The notes: generated from the sequence alone by a model not told the origin. Counted from the stretch's first letter, positions 10,515-63,509 are shown. The stretch: DNA of 64,000 bases from Clostridia bacterium (GCA_017407205.1 JAFQXA010000016.1:86726-150725), one strand, 5' to 3'. Made by a program: numbers and translations.

Positions 10515-10590
10515 TCCTCCTTAGCTCAGTCGGTAGAGCATGCGGCTGTTAACCGCAGTGTCGCTGGTTCGAGTCCAGCAGGGGGAGCCA
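10515..10590 (+). tRNA. tRNA-Asn (GTT)
   Basis: Acceptor stem TCCTCCT/AGGGGGA, D arm GCTCAGTCGGTAGAGC, anticodon arm GCGG-CTGTTAA-CCGC, T loop GTTCGAGTC, encoded CCA. Confidence 0.97.
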
Positions 10591-10753: not shown

Positions 10754-10790
10754 GAAAAAACGACAGGTTTCGACCTGTCGTTTTTTCAAC

Positions 10791-10966
10791 GAAATAAATC
10801 CCTGCGGGATTTGTGAAATGCACTTCGTGCGTGAAATATTGCTTCGCAATGTGAAATGCCTGCGTGCGTGAGAGGATTTATTTCATTTCACTTGATGTGT
10901 CATCATCAAATTTCGCAATTCACGAAGTGAATTATTTCACATTCGGCGAAAGCCGAATATTTCACT
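10791..10966. repeat. Structured array of short hairpins separated by GTGAAAT (left half) and ATTTCAC (right half) heptamers
   Basis: GAAAT-hp-GTGAAAT-hp-GTGAAAT-hp-GTGAAAT...ATTTCAC-hp-ATTTCGC-hp-ATTTCAC-hp-ATTTCAC, read directly from the sequence. Confidence 0.8.
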
Positions 10967-32139: not shown

Positions 32140-32201
32140 AAATAAAGCCAAATAAAAATCGCTCAGGTGTAAAAAGCCTGAGCGAATTTCTTTTTTAAAA
32201 T

Positions 32202-32536
32202 GAGCAAGCAATAAGCCGAGTTCTGTATAACTGTGACCATCTATCTTGGCGTATCGTCACCGATACGCTCGTGCGATTTTCAAGAGCGTGACGGGCAGCC
32301 ATTAAATGCTCTCATTCCAATCTTGCTCCGAGTGGGGTTTACAGCACATCCTTCGTTGCCGAAGGCGTGGGTGAGCTCTTACCTCGCCTTTCCACCCTTA
32401 CCGCAAAAATGCGGCGGTATATCTCTGTTGCACTTTCCTTGAAGTCGCCTTCACCGGGTGTTATCCGGCACTCTGCCCTGCGGAGCTCGGACTTTCCTCC
32501 CCGACATGAAAGACGGGGCGGTCACATAGCTTACTC
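32202..32536 (-). ncRNA. rnpB: RNase P RNA, bacterial type A
   Basis: Minus strand has GAGGAAAGTCCGAGCT (CR-I), GGAAAGTGCAACAGA, AAGGGTGGAAAGGCGAGGTAAGAGCTCACC, TAGATGGT and ACAGAACTCGGCTTA (CR-V). Ends pair as GAGTAAGC/GCTTGCTC. Confidence 0.96.
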
Positions 32537-32564
32537 ATATTTTGCTGTGTTGGTGTGTATTGTG

Positions 32565-55904: not shown

Positions 55905-56345
55905 ATGCGAAATTTTAAATTCAAGAGTTTTGTTGCGATTATTATAGCAGCGATTATTGGCGTCATGCTCATTTGTGGCTGCGAAAGCACACCCAAGCGC
56001 GAAGTGGGTTGGTACAAGGGTGTTAGGATGGTCGTAGAAGGCGAGCCAACAAGCCTTACAGCCTTTGAAACTCTTTTTGGTATGAATGTTGTAGCGGTGT
56101 TCAGACAAAACGGAACAGGCTATTTTGATATGATGGGTGGACAGATCACAGACTTTCGCTATTCAAACAACAATATAATAATTGAGGGGCAGGAAACACC
56201 TTATACGCTCGATGATGAGGGCTTGCTTAAGATAACTATATTTGACAGCGAAATTGAGCTCCAGCGTCAGGAGGGCGAGCCCCCCGAACTTTCGACCGAG
56301 GACGATGTAAGTAAACTCCTCGGCGAACTCGGAGCAGGAAATTAA
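55905..56345 (+). CDS. Hypothetical lipoprotein
   Basis: Basic N-terminus, hydrophobic stretch, lipobox-like LICGC; GGAGG RBS before ATG 55905. Confidence 0.7.
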   Translation: MRNFKFKSFVAIIIAAIIGVMLICGCESTPKREVGWYKGVRMVVEGEPTSLTAFETLFGMNVVAVFRQNGTGYFDMMGGQITDFRYSNNNIIIEGQETPYTLDDEGLLKITIFDSEIELQRQEGEPPELSTEDDVSKLLGELGAGN

Positions 56346-56364: not shown

Positions 56365-56402
56365 AAACAGCACTCTGCTTTTTTGCAGGGTGCTGTGTTT
56401 TG
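56365..56402. terminator. Bidirectional terminator closing the T-box operon
   Basis: ACAGCACTCTGC-TTTTTT-GCAGGGTGCTGT hairpin between convergent genes. Confidence 0.7.
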
Positions 56403-56412
56403 TTACGGTTTA

Positions 56413-57609
56413 TTAACTCTGAAAATAGTATTTTGCAAGCTTTTCAAATGCCTGCATTGAACGCTCAATTCGCTCTGTGGGTACGCAATGTGCTATGCGG
56501 ACGTAGCCGGGGCACATGAAGCTGTCCGTCGGGACAATCAAAAGGTCAAACTCACGAGCCTTTAAGCAGAATTCATTTGCATCCGGAATGGGGGCCTTTA
56601 TGAGCAAATAGAAAGTTCCGCCCGGTTTTATACATTCAAACCCCATCTTGGTAAGGCTGGAGTAAAGAAGCTTTGCATTATGCTCGTATACTGAAACATC
56701 AGCGGTTTCGCCATCGCAGAGTGCTGCAACACGCTGGAAAAGTGCAGGTGCGTTTACAAAGCCGAGCTTTCTGCCTGCACCGCAGATTGAAGCATAAACC
56801 TTGTCATGATCTTCAACTGTTTCGGGAACGAATATATAACCTATTCTTTCGCCGGGGATTGAGAGTGACTTGCTGTATGAGTAGCAAACTATCGTGTTAT
56901 CATAGAAGGAGGGTACCCAGGGTGCCTTTACGCCTTCAAACACGAGTTCGCGGTACGGTTCGTCGGTTATGAGGAATATGGGATGATTGTATTCCTTGCT
57001 TTTTTTATCCAAAAGGCTTGCAAGCTCCTTGATTGTTTCCTCATCGTAAACAACGCCTGACGGATTGTTTGGCGAGTTTATAACAATACCCTTTGTATTT
57101 TCGTTTATAGCGTTTTCAATAGCCTTAAAATCGGGCATGAAGTTTTCAAAGTTGGGGGGCGTTACAACTATTTTTCCTCCCGCACCCTCTATGAAAACCT
57201 TGTATTCGCTGAAAAAGGGAGCTAAAAGCACATACTCATCACCCTCTACGGTAAGACCGTGGAAGGTGCAGGTGAGCGATGCAGCAGCACCAACCGTAAA
57301 GTAAATGTCGGATGGTGAAACATTACCGCCAAAGCGACGCATGAGGGAAGAAGCGAGTGCTTCACGGTTTCTCAAATCACCCTGTGCGCTTGTGTAAGCA
57401 TGAATTGAGCTTGCCTCATTTCCTGAAAGAAGCTCGTTTATCATATCGTTCACGCAAAGAGGGGCAGGAACGCTCGGATTGCCGAGTGAGTAGTCAAAAA
57501 CGTTTTCTGCACCAACCTCAGCACTTCTTAATTTGCCGTATTCGAATATTTCGCGCATTATATTGCGTGTTGTGCCAAGTGCCAATGATTTTTCGGGAAG
57601 CTTAAGCAT
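56413..57609 (-). CDS. Class I/II PLP-dependent aminotransferase (AspC-like; probably aromatic amino acid aminotransferase)
   Basis: SLGNP, INSPNNPSG, DEPY, SYSKSLSIPGERIGY (PLP lysine); starts 1 nt after the iorB stop. Confidence 0.9.
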   Translation of the reverse strand: MLKLPEKSLALGTTRNIMREIFEYGKLRSAEVGAENVFDYSLGNPSVPAPLCVNDMINELLSGNEASSIHAYTSAQGDLRNREALASSLMRRFGGNVSPSDIYFTVGAAASLTCTFHGLTVEGDEYVLLAPFFSEYKVFIEGAGGKIVVTPPNFENFMPDFKAIENAINENTKGIVINSPNNPSGVVYDEETIKELASLLDKKSKEYNHPIFLITDEPYRELVFEGVKAPWVPSFYDNTIVCYSYSKSLSIPGERIGYIFVPETVEDHDKVYASICGAGRKLGFVNAPALFQRVAALCDGETADVSVYEHNAKLLYSSLTKMGFECIKPGGTFYLLIKAPIPDANEFCLKAREFDLLIVPTDSFMCPGYVRIAHCVPTERIERSMQAFEKLAKYYFQS

Positions 57610-57610
57610 C

Positions 57611-58192
57611 TTAGTCCACCTTTACATTCAAGCCAAGCTCAAACGCCTTCTTGTTAAGCTCAAGGAATTTTTGAGGAACGCATCTGTCAATAGCACCTTG
57701 CCATGCTTCGTCATCAAAGTCGAAGAAGCGTGAAGCTGCACCCATCAAAACGATGTTGACGGATTTTGCATTTCCTGCTTCTTTCGCAAGTGAAAGTGCA
57801 TCAAATGCTACTATATTTATGCCGAGTGCAGAAATCTTCTCCACGAGATTTTCGGGATATTTTGCTGTGCCTGCAATAACGGGCATGGGCATGATTTCCT
57901 GTGTATTTGAAATAATTGTTCCATTGGGCTTTAAATATTCAACCCAGCGTGCAGCCTCCAAAAGCTCGAATGAAATGATGATATCAGCTTCACCCTTGTC
58001 TATAATTGGGGAGTAAACCTTATCGCCATAGCGAACATAGGTTACAACGCTTCCGCCACGCTGACTCATGCCGTGAACTTCGGATACCTTTACATCATAT
58101 CCTTTATTCATCAGGAGGTTACCTAAAAGCTTACTTGCCAAAAGTGAGCCCTGACCGCCAACGCCTACTATCATAATGTTTTTTGTTTCCAT
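57611..58192 (-). CDS. iorB: Indolepyruvate:ferredoxin oxidoreductase beta subunit
   Basis: GVGGQG, SEVHGMSQRGGSV, N.VLMG, N.KAF..G. Confidence 0.94.
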   Translation of the reverse strand: METKNIMIVGVGGQGSLLASKLLGNLLMNKGYDVKVSEVHGMSQRGGSVVTYVRYGDKVYSPIIDKGEADIIISFELLEAARWVEYLKPNGTIISNTQEIMPMPVIAGTAKYPENLVEKISALGINIVAFDALSLAKEAGNAKSVNIVLMGAASRFFDFDDEAWQGAIDRCVPQKFLELNKKAFELGLNVKVD

Positions 58193-58204
58193 ATTGCACA
58201 CTCC

Positions 58205-59941
58205 TTACTCTGCTGTTTCAAATGCATCAAACTTGCAAAGCTCACGGCATACACCGCAACCTACGCAAAGCGTTGCGTCAACGTGTGCCTTGCCGTCAAC
58301 CATGCTGATTGCAGGGCAGGTGAATTTCATGCAAGCCTTACAGCTCTTACACTTATCCGTGTTGACCTTAAGCGGAGCTTTGGGCTTTACATACTTCAAA
58401 AGCACGCAGGGGCGACGGGAAATGATAACTGAGGGCTCTTTCTTTTTGAGCTCTTCGCGTATTGCTTCCTCCGTCTCTTTAAGATTATAGGGATCTACAA
58501 CTCTTACGCTGTTTATACCAAGTGCTTTGCAAAGTGCTTCAAGATCAACCTTTGAAGCAGGATCGCCCTTTATAGTGTAACCGGTTGTCGGGTTCTGCTG
58601 ATGACCTGTCATGCCGGTTATTGAATTGTCAAGTATTATAACTGTTGAATTGCTTGCGTTATATGCAATGTTTACAAGCCCCGTCATGCCCGAATGCATG
58701 AATGTTGAGTCACCGATAACTGCAACGGTGCCTTCTTCGCTTGTTTTGCCGAGTGCCTTGTTAAAGCCGTGTATGCCTGAGATTGAAGCACCCATGCAGA
58801 TTGTTGAATCCATAGCTGAAAGCGGAGGCTGTGCTCCCAATGTGTAACAGCCGATATCGCCGATAACGCGTAATTTGAGCTTTGAAAGTATGTAGAAAAG
58901 ACCGCGGTGCGGACAGCCGGGGCATAATACCGGAGGACGCATGGGGATGTTTTCGTCAAGCTTCTTTGTTTCCTTTTCACCCTTTTCAAGCTTTTCTGAA
59001 ATGTAGTTCTGTGAGAACTCACCCATGTTTGAGAATACTTCCTTGCCAACTGTTTCAAGCCCTAAGGAGGCACAATGCTGTTCAATAATGCCGTCAAGTT
59101 CTTCTACGATAACGAGCTTTTCAACACTCTTTGCGAATTCCTTTATAAGCTTTACGGGCATGGGATTTATCATGCCAAGCTTCAAAACATAAGCTTCATC
59201 ACCGAATACTTCCTTTACATACTGATAGGAAGTACTTGATGTGATAATACCAATCTTGTTTGACGTACCCTTTTCAATGCGGTTAACTGTTGATGTTTCT
59301 GCAAACTCAGTCAACAAACGGGTTCTTTCCTCAACGATGGGATGGCGCTTCCTTGCATAGCCGGGCATCATGATATATTTATCGGGACGCTTTTCGTAAG
59401 GAATGTTTTCACGGTTTATACGCTCGCTCGTTTCAACTATGCTCTGTGAGTGTGCAACGCGTGTGCACATTTTGAGTATGACGGGAGTATCAAACTTCTC
59501 GCTTATCTCAAATGCCTGCTTTGTGAACTCAAGTGCTTCAGCTGAATCTGAAGGCTCAAGCATGGGAACCTTTGCCGAAATTGCATAGTGGCGGGAATCC
59601 TGTTCATTCTGTGAGCTGTGCATACCCGGGTCATCAGCTACTGCGATTACCATACCGCCTGTTACACCTGTATAGGAGATTGTAAAGAGGGGGTCAGCTG
59701 CTACGTTTAAGCCAACGTGCTTCATGCCGCAGAATGAACGGCTGCCTGCCATTGATGCACCGTGTGCAACTTCCATTGCAACCTTTTCATTTGGTGCCCA
59801 CTCGCAATAAATTTCATCGTATTTTGCAGCATTTTCGGTTATTTCGGTACTCGGAGTGCCGGGATAACTTGATACTACATTGCAGCCTGCTTCATAAAGA
59901 CCGCGTGCAACTGCTTCGTTTCCGAGCATTATTGTTTTCAT
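58205..59941 (-). CDS. iorA: Indolepyruvate:ferredoxin oxidoreductase alpha subunit
   Basis: LGNEAVARG, YPGTPSTE, MKHVGLNVAAD, SSQNEQD, RPPVLCPGCPH, GDIGCY, GDSTF.HSG TPP motif, C-terminal 2x[4Fe-4S] ferredoxin Cys motifs. Confidence 0.96.
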   Translation of the reverse strand: MKTIMLGNEAVARGLYEAGCNVVSSYPGTPSTEITENAAKYDEIYCEWAPNEKVAMEVAHGASMAGSRSFCGMKHVGLNVAADPLFTISYTGVTGGMVIAVADDPGMHSSQNEQDSRHYAISAKVPMLEPSDSAEALEFTKQAFEISEKFDTPVILKMCTRVAHSQSIVETSERINRENIPYEKRPDKYIMMPGYARKRHPIVEERTRLLTEFAETSTVNRIEKGTSNKIGIITSSTSYQYVKEVFGDEAYVLKLGMINPMPVKLIKEFAKSVEKLVIVEELDGIIEQHCASLGLETVGKEVFSNMGEFSQNYISEKLEKGEKETKKLDENIPMRPPVLCPGCPHRGLFYILSKLKLRVIGDIGCYTLGAQPPLSAMDSTICMGASISGIHGFNKALGKTSEEGTVAVIGDSTFMHSGMTGLVNIAYNASNSTVIILDNSITGMTGHQQNPTTGYTIKGDPASKVDLEALCKALGINSVRVVDPYNLKETEEAIREELKKKEPSVIISRRPCVLLKYVKPKAPLKVNTDKCKSCKACMKFTCPAISMVDGKAHVDATLCVGCGVCRELCKFDAFETAE

Positions 59942-59977
59942 GTTTTGTGACTCCTTTTTATATGTGTGTATAAGTAT

Positions 59978-61486
59978 TTACTTTTTAAGGCTCTCAAAAG
60001 CCGAATTGAGCAATTTCTCATCGGGCTTTTTGGTAAAGAGCGATACGAGGGGAACTATTACAAGACCTGCAAGCATTATGAATGCACCGCAGTTGACGGG
60101 TGACTGCAAGTATGCGGGGAATGAGCTTCTTGCCAATATGTTGAGTATCATAACAGCTGATGCAAATATGAAGTTCACATATGCCGCTGCCTTTGTAACA
60201 CGCTTTGTGTAGAGACTCAAAAGGTAAGGAGCAAGGAATGAACCTGCCAAAGCACCCCATGAGATACCCATAAGGTCTGCAATAAATGCAACGCCGCCGT
60301 GTGCCTGTACAATTGCTATTATAGCAGAAACCGCAATGAAAATGAATATGAGTACACGCATTGACAAAAGTTGCTGTTTCTCAGTCATGCCGTTTTTGCG
60401 GTTGGCCTTTATGAGGTCAAGCGTAAGTGTTGAGCTTGAAGTCAATACGAGTGATGAGAGCGTTGACATTGAAGCTGAAAGAACGAGTATTATTACAACA
60501 CCAATAAGCAAATCGCCGACACCGCTGAGCATTGTGGGAACTATAAGGTCGTATCCGCCAACGGGAGTACCTGCATCTGTCGGAGCAACAAAAAGTCTGC
60601 CGAAACCGCCGAGGAAGTAACAACCGCCTGCAACTATGAGTGCAAATACAGTTGAAATTACAGTACCCTTGACTATCGCCTTATCGTCCTTTATAGCGTA
60701 GAACTTATGAACCATCTGAGGCAATCCCCATGTGCCGAGTGAAGTTAAAATTACAACACAGACAAGGTTGAATACGCTGGGACCGAAAAGGCTTGAAAGT
60801 GAACCCTTGGGGATACCGTCTGCTTCAATCTGACCGAGTGACAAGAGTGCATTTGTAAGACCGCCTGCTTCGCTCTGGTTGAGGACTGCAAATACTACTG
60901 CAACAATGCCAACAAGCATTATTATGCCCTGTATGAAGTTGTTGACGGCAGAAGCCATGTAACCGCCTGCAACGACATATATACAGGTCAAAAGAGCCAT
61001 CGCGATTATGCAGACCGTGTAGTCAATATTAAATGCCATCTTGAAAAGATAGGAAAGACCGTTGTAAAGCGAAGCTGTATAGGGGATAAGGAATATAAAT
61101 ACGATTATTGCAGCAAGTGTTTTGAGACCTTTGCTGTCAAAACGCTTGCCGAAGAAATCGGGCATTGTGTTGCTGTCAAAATACTGAGTCATTCTGCGTG
61201 TACGCTTGCCGAGTATGAGCCAGGGCAGAAGCGAACCGATAATAGCATTGCCTATACCGATCCATGAAGATGAAACACCGAATTTCCATCCGAACTGACC
61301 TGCATAGCCTATGAATATAACCGCTGAAAAGTATGATGTGCCGTATGCAAATGCCGTAAGCCACGGTCCGATATTTCTTCCGCCCAGAACAAAGCCGTTA
61401 ACATCGGTGGCTTTCTTTCTGCATATGATGCCTACTGCAATCATTACAGCAAAAAACACTACTACCATTGCGATCTTGATAATCAT
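59978..61486 (-). CDS. Sodium:solute symporter (SSS/SLC5 family)
   Basis: About 13 TM segments, F.LGGR..GPW, SYFSA..FIG.AG, Y...GG..A....IQG, WGLPQ...KFY, SASMST.SS. GGAGG RBS before ATG 61486. Confidence 0.93.
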   Translation of the reverse strand: MIIKIAMVVVFFAVMIAVGIICRKKATDVNGFVLGGRNIGPWLTAFAYGTSYFSAVIFIGYAGQFGWKFGVSSSWIGIGNAIIGSLLPWLILGKRTRRMTQYFDSNTMPDFFGKRFDSKGLKTLAAIIVFIFLIPYTASLYNGLSYLFKMAFNIDYTVCIIAMALLTCIYVVAGGYMASAVNNFIQGIIMLVGIVAVVFAVLNQSEAGGLTNALLSLGQIEADGIPKGSLSSLFGPSVFNLVCVVILTSLGTWGLPQMVHKFYAIKDDKAIVKGTVISTVFALIVAGGCYFLGGFGRLFVAPTDAGTPVGGYDLIVPTMLSGVGDLLIGVVIILVLSASMSTLSSLVLTSSSTLTLDLIKANRKNGMTEKQQLLSMRVLIFIFIAVSAIIAIVQAHGGVAFIADLMGISWGALAGSFLAPYLLSLYTKRVTKAAAYVNFIFASAVMILNILARSSFPAYLQSPVNCGAFIMLAGLVIVPLVSLFTKKPDEKLLNSAFESLKK

Positions 61487-61518
61487 GTTTTTATCCTCCT
61501 CTTTCTGAAAACAAAAAA

Positions 61519-63153
61519 TTATTTTGTCGTTTGTGCTTCTACCAAACGGCTTCCGCAATAAATGCTGCGAAGTACGGGCTTTTCAATCTTGCCCGTCGGG
61601 TTTCTCGGAATGTCTGCAAATATTATCTTGCGAGGACGCTTGTACCTTGGGAGCTCCTTGCAGAAAGCATCGATTTCTTCTTCGGTTGCCGTCATGCCTT
61701 CTTTAATCTCAATAATCGCAGCTGCGATTTCACCCAAACGGTCGTGAGGAAGACCTATTACTGCGGCATCCTTTATCTTATCGTTTGCACGTAAGAAGTC
61801 TTCAATCTGAACAGGATAAATATTCTCGCCGCCTGAAATGATAACGTCCTTTTTGCGGTCTACAAGATATATAAATCCGTCTTCATCTTCTTTTGCCATG
61901 TCGCCCGTGAAGAGCCAATCACCCTTCAAGACCTCGTCAGTTGCTTCTTTATTGTTAAAGTAGCATTTCATAACACCGGGACCCTTTACGATAAGCTCGC
62001 CAACCTCGCCCTTTGTGACTTCTTCGCCGCTTTCGTCAACAATCTTTGTTTCCCAAAGATAGCCTGCCTTGCCGATTGCACCAACCTTGTGTATGTTCTC
62101 AACTCCAAGATGAACACAGCCGGGACCTATTGACTCACTCAAACCGTAGTTCGTGTCATACTGATGATGGGGGAAGTACTGCTTCCAACGCTTTATAAGA
62201 CTCGGCGGAACGGGCTGTGCACCGATGTGCATAAGACGCCAATAGCTCAAGTCATAGTTTTCAAGCTTCAATGCACCGCTGTCTATTGCATCGAGTATAT
62301 CCTGAGCCCACGGCACAAGAAGCCATACTATGGAAGCCTTTTCCTGTGCTGCGACATCGAGTATCCATTGCGGTTTTACACCGCGAAGCAAAACTGCCTT
62401 ACTTCCTGACAGCAAGCTTCCGAACCAATGCATCTTTGCGCCCGTGTGATAAAGGGGCGGTATGCACAGGAAAACGTCATCATGCTGTTGACCGTGATGG
62501 TTCTGCTCTGTACGGCAGGATGAAACAAGTGCCTGATGCCCATGCAAAATAGCCTTGGGGAAGCCCGTGGTTCCCGATGAGAAATATATTGCAGCATTAT
62601 CATCGTCATCAATCTGCACAGCAGGGGGCTCTTCCGAACAGTATGAAGTCATTGTTTCATAGCTGTCTGCATAGGAGGGAGCATTATTGCCCACAAAGAA
62701 ATAATGACGAATATTGTCAAGAGAGCCGACTATCGGATTCATACGTTCTGTAAACTCAGGACCGAATACAAGAACGCTTACTTCTGCAAGATTTAAGCAG
62801 TAATCAATCTCGTCTGACGTGTATCTGAAATTCATGGGAACTGCCAAAGCTCCGGTTTTGAGTATGCCGAAATATATGGGCAGCCACTCAATGCAGTTCA
62901 TAAGGAGTATTGCAACCTTATCGCCTTTCTTCACACCGCGTGAAAGCAAAAGGTTTGCAAAACGATTTGCCGCTTTATCAAACTTCTGCCATGTAATCTC
63001 GCGACGGTAGGGCAAGCCCGTAATGCTTTCAATAAGGTTGAACTCACGCCAGGTTTTTGCGTTGTCAACCTCATCTGACGGATTTACCTCGACCAAGGCT
63101 GTTTCATTGGGGAAGAGCCTTGCGTTTTTTTCAAGAAAATCGGTAATAATCAT
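61519..63153 (-). CDS. Class I adenylate-forming acyl/aryl-CoA ligase
   Basis: YFSSGTTGFPK P-loop, PPLYH, NYGLSE, TGD, DRKKD.IISGGENIYP..IE, P.NPTGKI. AAGGAG RBS before ATG 63153. Confidence 0.93.
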   Translation of the reverse strand: MIITDFLEKNARLFPNETALVEVNPSDEVDNAKTWREFNLIESITGLPYRREITWQKFDKAANRFANLLLSRGVKKGDKVAILLMNCIEWLPIYFGILKTGALAVPMNFRYTSDEIDYCLNLAEVSVLVFGPEFTERMNPIVGSLDNIRHYFFVGNNAPSYADSYETMTSYCSEEPPAVQIDDDDNAAIYFSSGTTGFPKAILHGHQALVSSCRTEQNHHGQQHDDVFLCIPPLYHTGAKMHWFGSLLSGSKAVLLRGVKPQWILDVAAQEKASIVWLLVPWAQDILDAIDSGALKLENYDLSYWRLMHIGAQPVPPSLIKRWKQYFPHHQYDTNYGLSESIGPGCVHLGVENIHKVGAIGKAGYLWETKIVDESGEEVTKGEVGELIVKGPGVMKCYFNNKEATDEVLKGDWLFTGDMAKEDEDGFIYLVDRKKDVIISGGENIYPVQIEDFLRANDKIKDAAVIGLPHDRLGEIAAAIIEIKEGMTATEEEIDAFCKELPRYKRPRKIIFADIPRNPTGKIEKPVLRSIYCGSRLVEAQTTK

Positions 63154-63184
63154 ATAAGAACATCTCCTTTGATGTGTATTGATA

Positions 63185-63465
63185 AAATAAAAAAGCCTCT
63201 GTGCTTTTTTAAAAGCACAGAGGACGAGCAAACACCCGTGATACCACCTCGGTTTACCGCAGCCTCACGGCATACGACCTTATTTGGTACATGACACAAA
63301 AGCTGTAACGGGCAAACCCGCCGCTGCCTACTGAGATTAAATAATCCGTTCAAAGCGGTGCTACCAAGATGTATTCGACAATGAGCGCCTTTACTGCCTT
63401 ACACCAACCGACAGCTCTCTTGAAAGTACGACACAAAGCTACTTGTTCTCGGTCACTGCATCATT
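63185..63465 (-). promoter_or_regulatory. T-box riboswitch leader with a Tyr (UAC) specifier
   Basis: Minus strand shows stem I with AGTAG, AGAGAG and GGTGTAA motifs, specifier loop GAA-TAC-ATC (TAC at 63373-63371), stem II AGTA box, CCGTTA F-box, T-box AGGTGGTATCACG, terminator CCTCTGTGCTTTT-AA-AAAAGCACAGAGG-CTTTTTT. Confidence 0.92.
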
Positions 63466-63480
63466 TTGATACTGAATTGA

Positions 63481-63509
63481 ATTTTATCACTCCAAAACTT
63501 TAGTGTCAA
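63481..63509 (-). promoter_or_regulatory. SigA promoter driving the T-box leader
   Basis: TTGACA-17 nt-TAAAAT with an extended TG on the minus strand. Confidence 0.85.

Follow-up and report, generated by a model that had tools for sequence, protein, structure and literature searches.

Reductive carboxylation of phenylacetate and indoleacetate is carried out by rumen bacteria. Formation of phenylalanine from phenylacetate is mentioned in PMC7356843. Methanococcus maripaludis assimilates aryl acids into aromatic amino acids through indolepyruvate:ferredoxin oxidoreductase (IOR), which converts arylacetate to arylpyruvate ahead of transamination (Porat et al., cited in PMC4162585); regulation of the tyrosine T-box kind is not reported for this pathway in the available part of PMC4162585. 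Here we describe an operon under T-box control on the minus strand, at positions 56413-63509, of a 64,000-nucleotide stretch of DNA from a Clostridia bacterium (GCA_017407205.1 JAFQXA010000016.1:86726-150725). The whole stretch is referred to as the window. The same sequence of steps, arylacetate to arylpyruvate via IOR and then transamination, is proposed for this operon, and both M. maripaludis and this genome combine an IOR route with a de novo pathway. Unlike M. maripaludis, the host is a bacterium, and the operon has tyrosine T-box control, its own sodium:solute symporter (SSS) family transporter and a FadD-like ligase.

The ligase next to IOR in Bacteroides, which to our knowledge has no T-boxes, is presumably PaaK-type. 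According to the available text of PMC13285125, Bacteroides iorAB has an adjacent AMP-forming ligase that is an arylacetate-CoA ligase, and the pair is probably biosynthetic; the window ligase differs in being FadD-like, with domains PF00501 and PF13193. The HpdDEFG/phosphotransacylase/kinase pathway of Clostridium scatologenes, as described in the same part of that source, shares the intermediates 4-hydroxyphenylpyruvate, 4-hydroxyphenylacetyl-CoA and 4-hydroxyphenylacetate with the proposed route but runs in the opposite, oxidative direction to 4-hydroxyphenylacetate and p-cresol, using a VOR-like four-subunit enzyme and a kinase that conserves ATP. The window operon, unlike that pathway, would consume the p-cresol precursor. 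PMC2494555 (available text) describes Tyr-specifier T-boxes ahead of tyrS; the Bacillus cereus group also has them ahead of phenylalanine 4-hydroxylase and of the operon for tyrosine biosynthesis. The window leader is of the same riboswitch class and has the same UAC specifier and the same logic of making more tyrosine, but here it would control an arylacetate salvage module.

The best-supported reading of the locus, with a probability of roughly 0.7 from sequence comparison, is an arylacetate-to-tyrosine salvage operon that is switched on by uncharged tRNA-Tyr. When charging of tRNA-Tyr is low, the tRNA would pair with the UAC specifier and the UGGU bulge of the leader and stabilise the antiterminator, and RNA polymerase would read into five genes. 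The symporter would then import an arylacetate, most likely 4-hydroxyphenylacetate, and the AMP-forming FadD-like ligase would convert it to the CoA thioester. IorAB would carboxylate the thioester reductively, using CO2 and reduced ferredoxin, to 4-hydroxyphenylpyruvate, which the aminotransferase would turn into tyrosine. This scheme infers what the transporter, ligase and aminotransferase act on, in which direction IOR runs and that the operon is induced in vivo. Because a T-box opens on uncharged tRNA, the module should be made when tyrosine is short. The preliminary description had proposed arylacetate salvage by reverse IOR, induced by tyrosine starvation, and this proposal gained support from comparative genomics (UAC in 63/63 readable leaders, 19 families), as set out below.

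The leader (63465-63217, minus strand) matched the Rfam T-box model RF00230 over its full length (model positions 1-219 of 219), with a score of 96.6 bits against a gathering score of 93 and an E value of 5.8e-20. Alignment to the covariance model placed UAC at 63373-63371 (minus strand) in the specifier position, with A following at 63370; the earlier call of a Tyr T-box was thus borne out by the structural alignment. The specifier loop reads GAA-UAC-A and is closed by a helix in which UCUUGG pairs with CCGAGA. The TBDB rule takes the specifier as the codon which, with a purine, lies immediately 5' of the closing helix (TBDB preprint, available text). The T-box bulge UGGU was located by sequence at 63246-63243 (minus strand) and is predicted to pair with the NCCA end of a tRNA having discriminator A. 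The discriminator of tRNA-Tyr is A73. Hairpin search and folding identified the intrinsic terminator of the leader at 63223-63196 (minus strand), with a 12-bp stem and a U-run; the region folds at -29.5 kcal/mol (z -4.67) and none of 200 shuffles folded equally well. Terminator and antiterminator exclude each other, because the 5' arm of the former (CCUC...) shares bases with the 3' arm of the latter. By its sequence the leader therefore combines the score of a T-box, a codon and purine beside the closing helix, a UGGN bulge and exclusive antiterminator and terminator.

Reading the loop one base later would give a Thr codon (ACA, ACG or ACC). This frame was rejected on three grounds: the bulge of the thrS leader of the same genome is UGGA, the base after UAC is mostly a purine, and the tyrS leaders of the relatives L023, L028 and L032 share both the loop GAA-UAC-A and the bulge UGGU with the window leader. 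The thrS specifier, ACC, is our own reading of a poorly aligned loop. Among the 63 readable orthologous leaders described below, the base 3' of UAC was A in 48, G in 14 and C in one. This bias is what a conserved purine would give, not what a wobble base with a purine behind it would, and it disfavours the Thr frame. Applied to the genome's other T-boxes, the TBDB rule gives sensible readings, with GUC ahead of ilvBNCD, AAC ahead of aspS/gatCAB, UGG ahead of a PALP enzyme and UUC ahead of pheST; the bulge of the Trp leader is UGGC. Four independent checks agree on Tyr as the specifier of the window leader.

Two of these other T-boxes were recorded separately. The one with the AAC (Asn) specifier (L002; contig C7:29638-29864, minus strand) precedes aspS and gatCAB-like open reading frames (ORFs), which were named from their size and N-termini, and the arrangement is consistent with indirect formation of Asn-tRNA. 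The Trp T-box (L004; C24:7913-8172, minus strand) has the specifier UGG and the bulge UGGC. Downstream of it, a 493-codon ORF encodes a PALP-family enzyme that may be a TrpB-like tryptophan synthase working alone and salvaging indole. If so, L004 would add a further T-box-controlled aromatic salvage function to the one proposed for the window operon.

The operon (56413-63509) consists of a promoter, the T-box leader, five genes and a closing hairpin. The sigma-70-type promoter at 63509-63481 (minus strand; TTGACA-17-TAAAAT with a TG extension) has 11/12 consensus matches and lies in the divergent intergenic region upstream of the leader. Promoter-consensus matches were equally frequent in shuffles (13 in the window against a mean of 12.5), and the call therefore rests on position and not on statistics. 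The first ATG, at 63153, is preceded by the ribosome-binding site AAGGAG. The gaps along the order ligase, symporter, iorA, iorB and aminotransferase are 32, 36, 3 and 1 nt. A hairpin terminator with 12 pairs, 7 of them G-C, was found 3' of the last stop at 56367-56396; it serves both strands and is common to the operon and to a convergent plus-strand ORF ending at 56345. The architecture proposed in the preliminary description, with one promoter, a full T-box leader, UAC, UGGU, five tightly spaced co-oriented genes and a terminator, was recovered completely on the minus strand. The DNA of the operon was found in animal gut metagenomes.

The first gene (63153-61519, minus strand) encodes an AMP-forming acyl-CoA ligase of 544 aa that is FadD-like (class I adenylate-forming), with PF00501 (252 bits) and PF13193. 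Its best NCBIfam model was NF004837 at 421.1 bits, below the cut-off of 476, and all 25 models listed were below their cut-offs; with NF004837 and the other FadD models under their curated cut-offs, the protein was not assigned as a long-chain fatty-acid-CoA ligase. It was also not assigned to the PaaK family, since it has 544 aa with PF00501 and PF13193 and is without PF14535 (AMP-binding_C_2), whereas PaaK-type proteins have ∼430 aa. PF14535 was used to type the PaaK-type ligases of clostridial operons. The CoA ligase named in the preliminary description thus stood as an AMP-forming acyl-CoA ligase, but by its Pfam domains it is FadD-like and not of the PaaK type known for arylacetates, so 4-hydroxyphenylacetate is its presumed substrate. 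The nearest solved structures are FadD13, FadD5 and feruloyl-, 4-coumarate- and malonyl-CoA ligases. Database names in the family are all generic (acyl-CoA ligase, long-chain acyl-CoA synthetase, FadD13), and the family has at least 8000 clusters at E ≤ 1e-100. Three homologs with 74-75% identity (P0066, P0113 and P0118) were labelled at source as Sumerlaeota, Coriobacteriaceae and Kiritimatiellia, which suggests horizontal spread or mis-binning of a very conserved gene.

The second gene (61486-59978, minus strand) encodes an SSS family transporter of 502 aa (PF00474, 192.8 bits against a gathering score of 22.8). Its scores were below the equivalog cut-offs of PutP (200.8 against 515.5), PanF (135 against 328) and ActP (50-56 against at least 750), and it is proposed to be an arylacetate importer. 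The gene iorA (59941-58205, minus strand) encodes the alpha subunit of an indolepyruvate (arylpyruvate):ferredoxin oxidoreductase of 578 aa, with 729.3 bits to TIGR03336 (cut-off 650.9) and POR_N, TPP_enzyme_C and two Fer4 domains; it is the only true iorA in the genome. The beta subunit gene iorB (58201-57611, minus strand) encodes 196 aa with 291.5 bits to NF005325 (cut-off 230) and PF01558 (POR). Both subunits exceed the equivalog cut-offs, with thiamine pyrophosphate (TPP) and 4Fe-4S domains present, and they were assigned as IOR. The last gene (57609-56413, minus strand) encodes a class I/II pyridoxal phosphate (PLP) aminotransferase of 398 aa with 507.3 bits to NF005305 (cut-off 376) and 3ele as the nearest structure; it is proposed to carry out the step from 4-hydroxyphenylpyruvate to tyrosine, a specificity that would follow from its place in the route. 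Candidate genes for uptake, CoA activation, IOR and transamination, on their presumed substrates, are therefore all held in one operon. As the ligase is AMP-forming, thioester synthesis would be favoured, and family and domain searches found no phosphotransacylase, acyl kinase or ADP-forming synthetase among the five products. Genes for phosphotransacylase, kinase and ADP-forming synthetase accompany oxidative IOR/VOR clusters (PMC13285125, available text).

Orthologous loci were collected with the window's ligase as the probe. The first set was the best 80 of 182 matches in species-representative genomes and was rich in Lachnospiraceae. The second set comprised 399 scored genomes, evenly sampled at the level of the class Clostridia, with an ortholog threshold of E ≤ 1e-150. 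Besides the window's own, 188 genomes matched; the 140 ranked highest supplied the survey loci, each taken with flanks of 3.5 kb (upstream) and 9 kb (downstream), and 9 further listed and 39 unlisted matching genomes lay outside this 140-locus survey. Survey loci were annotated by tblastn and an iterated nhmmer T-box profile, and the specifier tally was made from the alignment. Upstream of the first cluster gene, 132 loci have at least 400 nt and 8/140 have less than 400 nt.

A ligase ortholog with 66-75% identity was found in 189/399 genomes and 97/217 genera of the second set. A sense T-box lay within 250 nt ahead of the ligase, or of the symporter and ligase, in 63/132 loci with at least 400 nt upstream and in 64/140 overall; these loci span 19 of the 32 families in the survey. 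Rfam verified ten of ten sampled positives (97-122 bits) and found a T-box in none of 12 sampled T-box-negative loci. The specifier was UAC in all 63 readable leaders, the leader of L206 being cut by the contig start and unreadable, and the bulge was UGGU in 63/64. Unrelated T-boxes in the fetched stretches read AUC, UUC, GGC and others, so the method does not force UAC. The gene directly behind the T-box was the symporter in 39/64 loci and the ligase in 25. A T-box with a Tyr specifier is thus conserved together with these gene families in the ligase/symporter/ior module, and its presence ahead of the module in many families makes the operon a member of a widespread clostridial regulon and not a curiosity of the window.

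The transporter, which had been singled out as the notable part of the operon, proved to belong with the ligase to the common core under the Tyr T-box; the rare feature is the aminotransferase within the operon. Among the 80 first-set loci an aminotransferase followed iorB in the nearest relative only (L015), whose locus has just 94 nt upstream, and the 140 survey loci gave two weak matches (27-28% identity). A pair of ligase and aminotransferase, with 55-56% identity, was found in L026, L027 and L029.

The first set gave a T-box ahead of the ligase in 9/80 loci, of which six were above the Rfam gathering score and the other three show the motif. Eight of the nine specifiers were UAC, three of them as GA-UAC-C. 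The ninth was UUC (Phe), at L030 4446-4686 before an orthologous ligase-iorAB-PaaK-ACT operon, and is the only non-Tyr case seen. Rfam in E-value mode found no T-box upstream of the ligase at 12 further loci of this set. iorA and iorB follow the ligase in 33/80 loci.

Two arrangements were noted in relatives. The Lachnospiraceae locus L023 (8001-17162), like L028 and L032, reads ligase-symporter-iorA-iorB-PaaK-ACT with no T-box in front, and in all three tyrS with its own Tyr T-box lies directly downstream of the ligase-ior-PaaK-ACT cluster. A T-box with a UAC loop (55.6 bits) was found at L021 7485-7664, just 3' of the ligase at the contig end, with its target gene cut off.

Judged from the leaders, the invariant Tyr specifier suggests that the FadD-like ligase may be the 4-hydroxyphenylacetate-specific partner of the module. 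The fuller proposal, that it is a dedicated 4-hydroxyphenylacetate-CoA ligase which together with the symporter forms a Tyr-T-box salvage module feeding reverse IOR in at least 19 clostridial families, is made tentatively and stands at slightly less than even odds.

The position of the symporter bears on an alternative in which regulation is the same but the symporter imports tyrosine or 4-hydroxyphenylpyruvate, so that uptake and arylacetate assimilation would be separate functions sharing a T-box. We consider this unlikely. The usual cargo of transporters under T-box control is the cognate amino acid (Wels 2008, PMC2494555, available text), and the best family scores of the symporter were to proline and pantothenate symporters and not to acetate/monocarboxylate symporters. 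The symporter nevertheless stands directly upstream of the ligase in 13 T-box-negative loci and lies a few genes 3' of iorB in many first-set Lachnospiraceae loci; it accompanies the ligase even where there is no T-box, which points to a substrate common to both. We know of no tyrosine carrier in the SSS family.

Linkage to ior was used to weigh a second alternative, in which the FadD-like ligase activates an acid other than an arylacetate, the Tyr T-box marks another tyrosine-related function and the adjacency of IOR is secondary. Of the 123 loci with 2.5 kb or more of downstream sequence, 56 have iorA no further than 5 kb behind the ligase. iorA is adjacent in 33/64 T-box loci, 16 of which also carry a PaaK-type ligase and an ACT-domain protein. 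The other 31/64 have no iorA downstream in the fetched stretch, some stretches ending at the contig end, and 24 of these 31 read T-box-symporter-ligase. The Tyr T-box stands before the ligase alone in L017-L019. These loci, like the generic names of the ligase family and its nearest structures (fatty-acyl, feruloyl, 4-coumarate and malonyl ligases), would suit the second alternative. Against it, all five tested genomes with T-box-symporter-ligase but without adjacent ior encode true iorAB elsewhere, with no T-box within 1.5 kb of the unlinked iorAB in those five genomes, and the Phe-specifier variant of L030 fits an aromatic acid as the substrate. The only route from an acyl-CoA to tyrosine known to us is via IOR. 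This alternative is accordingly held to be improbable.

A catabolic operon, in which tyrosine is transaminated and oxidised by IOR and the product exported, agrees with the mainly oxidative characterisation of IOR (PMC13285125 and PMC12873857, available text) but is very improbable, because the T-box opens when tRNA-Tyr is uncharged and tyrosine would be destroyed exactly when it is scarce, and because the ligase spends ATP, forming AMP, and the operon lacks a phosphotransacylase, kinase or ADP-forming synthetase through which the thioester could be exploited.

Several observations weigh against the arylacetate-to-tyrosine salvage reading. A complete shikimate/tyrA/pheA operon lies on contig C11:49566-57621 of the same genome, so the salvage route is dispensable in principle. 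No T-box was found at 69/132 orthologous loci, and family f27 is notable in having none at any of its 11 loci. Outside the operon, the genome carries a PaaK-type gene (C41:55458-56792) paired with an ACT protein; since such pairs also occur in many homologous operons, the contribution of the FadD-like ligase is uncertain. The symporter scores closest to PutP and PanF and only weakly to acetate/monocarboxylate symporters. IOR enzymes accept all three arylpyruvates, and control by tyrosine only is not explained by IOR itself. No ferredoxin gene was found among the five operon genes. tRNA-Tyr was not among the 27 tRNAs of the 80%-complete assembly, nor in the tRNA cluster of L019.

The C11 operon carries genes for DAHP synthase, tyrA, aroB, aroA, aroC, CM/PDT, aroE-aroK and a putative aroQ, the last from an ORF only. 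The search for missing aro, tyrA and pheA genes that had been suggested as a check of the salvage proposal found none missing, and aromatic auxotrophy was ruled out. A prephenate dehydrogenase (PDH_N) match was found in 57/64 T-box-bearing genomes against 317/399 overall, the genomes being cross-matched by eye. The arylacetate route would supplement an intact shikimate pathway, at lower cost where arylacetates are at hand, and not replace it.

No paper linking T-boxes with IOR was found in the literature searched. Neither ior nor arylacetate salvage is named in the available main texts of PMC2494555, PMC3766115 and the TBDB preprint, whose supplements may list such operons. An earlier mention of ior operons under aromatic T-boxes, referred to in the preliminary description, could not be confirmed in the available parts of PMC2494555 or PMC3766115. 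Assimilation of arylacetates through IOR is old physiology and T-box control of tyrosine genes is textbook knowledge; the literature searched gave no example of the two combined, with a symporter, a non-PaaK ligase and IOR placed behind a Tyr T-box in many clostridial families, and the combination appears to be new.

Annotations and discussions of gut Firmicutes routinely treat IOR as a catabolic enzyme that yields phenylacetate, 4-hydroxyphenylacetate and indoleacetate, from which phenylacetylglutamine and p-cresol arise. By opening only on uncharged tRNA-Tyr, the riboswitch provides direct regulatory evidence on the direction of flux, which would be towards tyrosine with consumption of arylacetates. 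If the salvage reading is true, a large share of gut and rumen Clostridia would actively consume the p-cresol precursor when tyrosine is short, IOR would be primarily anabolic there, and the module would identify likely sinks for this precursor in gut and rumen communities. From the conserved Tyr T-box, a specific function open to testing also follows for an orphan SSS transporter and for a ligase family that is very large and has only generic names. Should the ligase be inactive on arylacetates, the T-box would flag another tyrosine-linked function, which would also be worth knowing.

Two further structured RNAs were found in the window. A Gut-1 RNA (RF01706) is located at 10787-10862 on the plus strand, with 74 bits against a gathering score of 50, ∼200 nt downstream of a tRNA at 10515-10587 (plus strand). 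A bacterial RNase P RNA of class A is located at 32197-32537 on the minus strand (278 bits).

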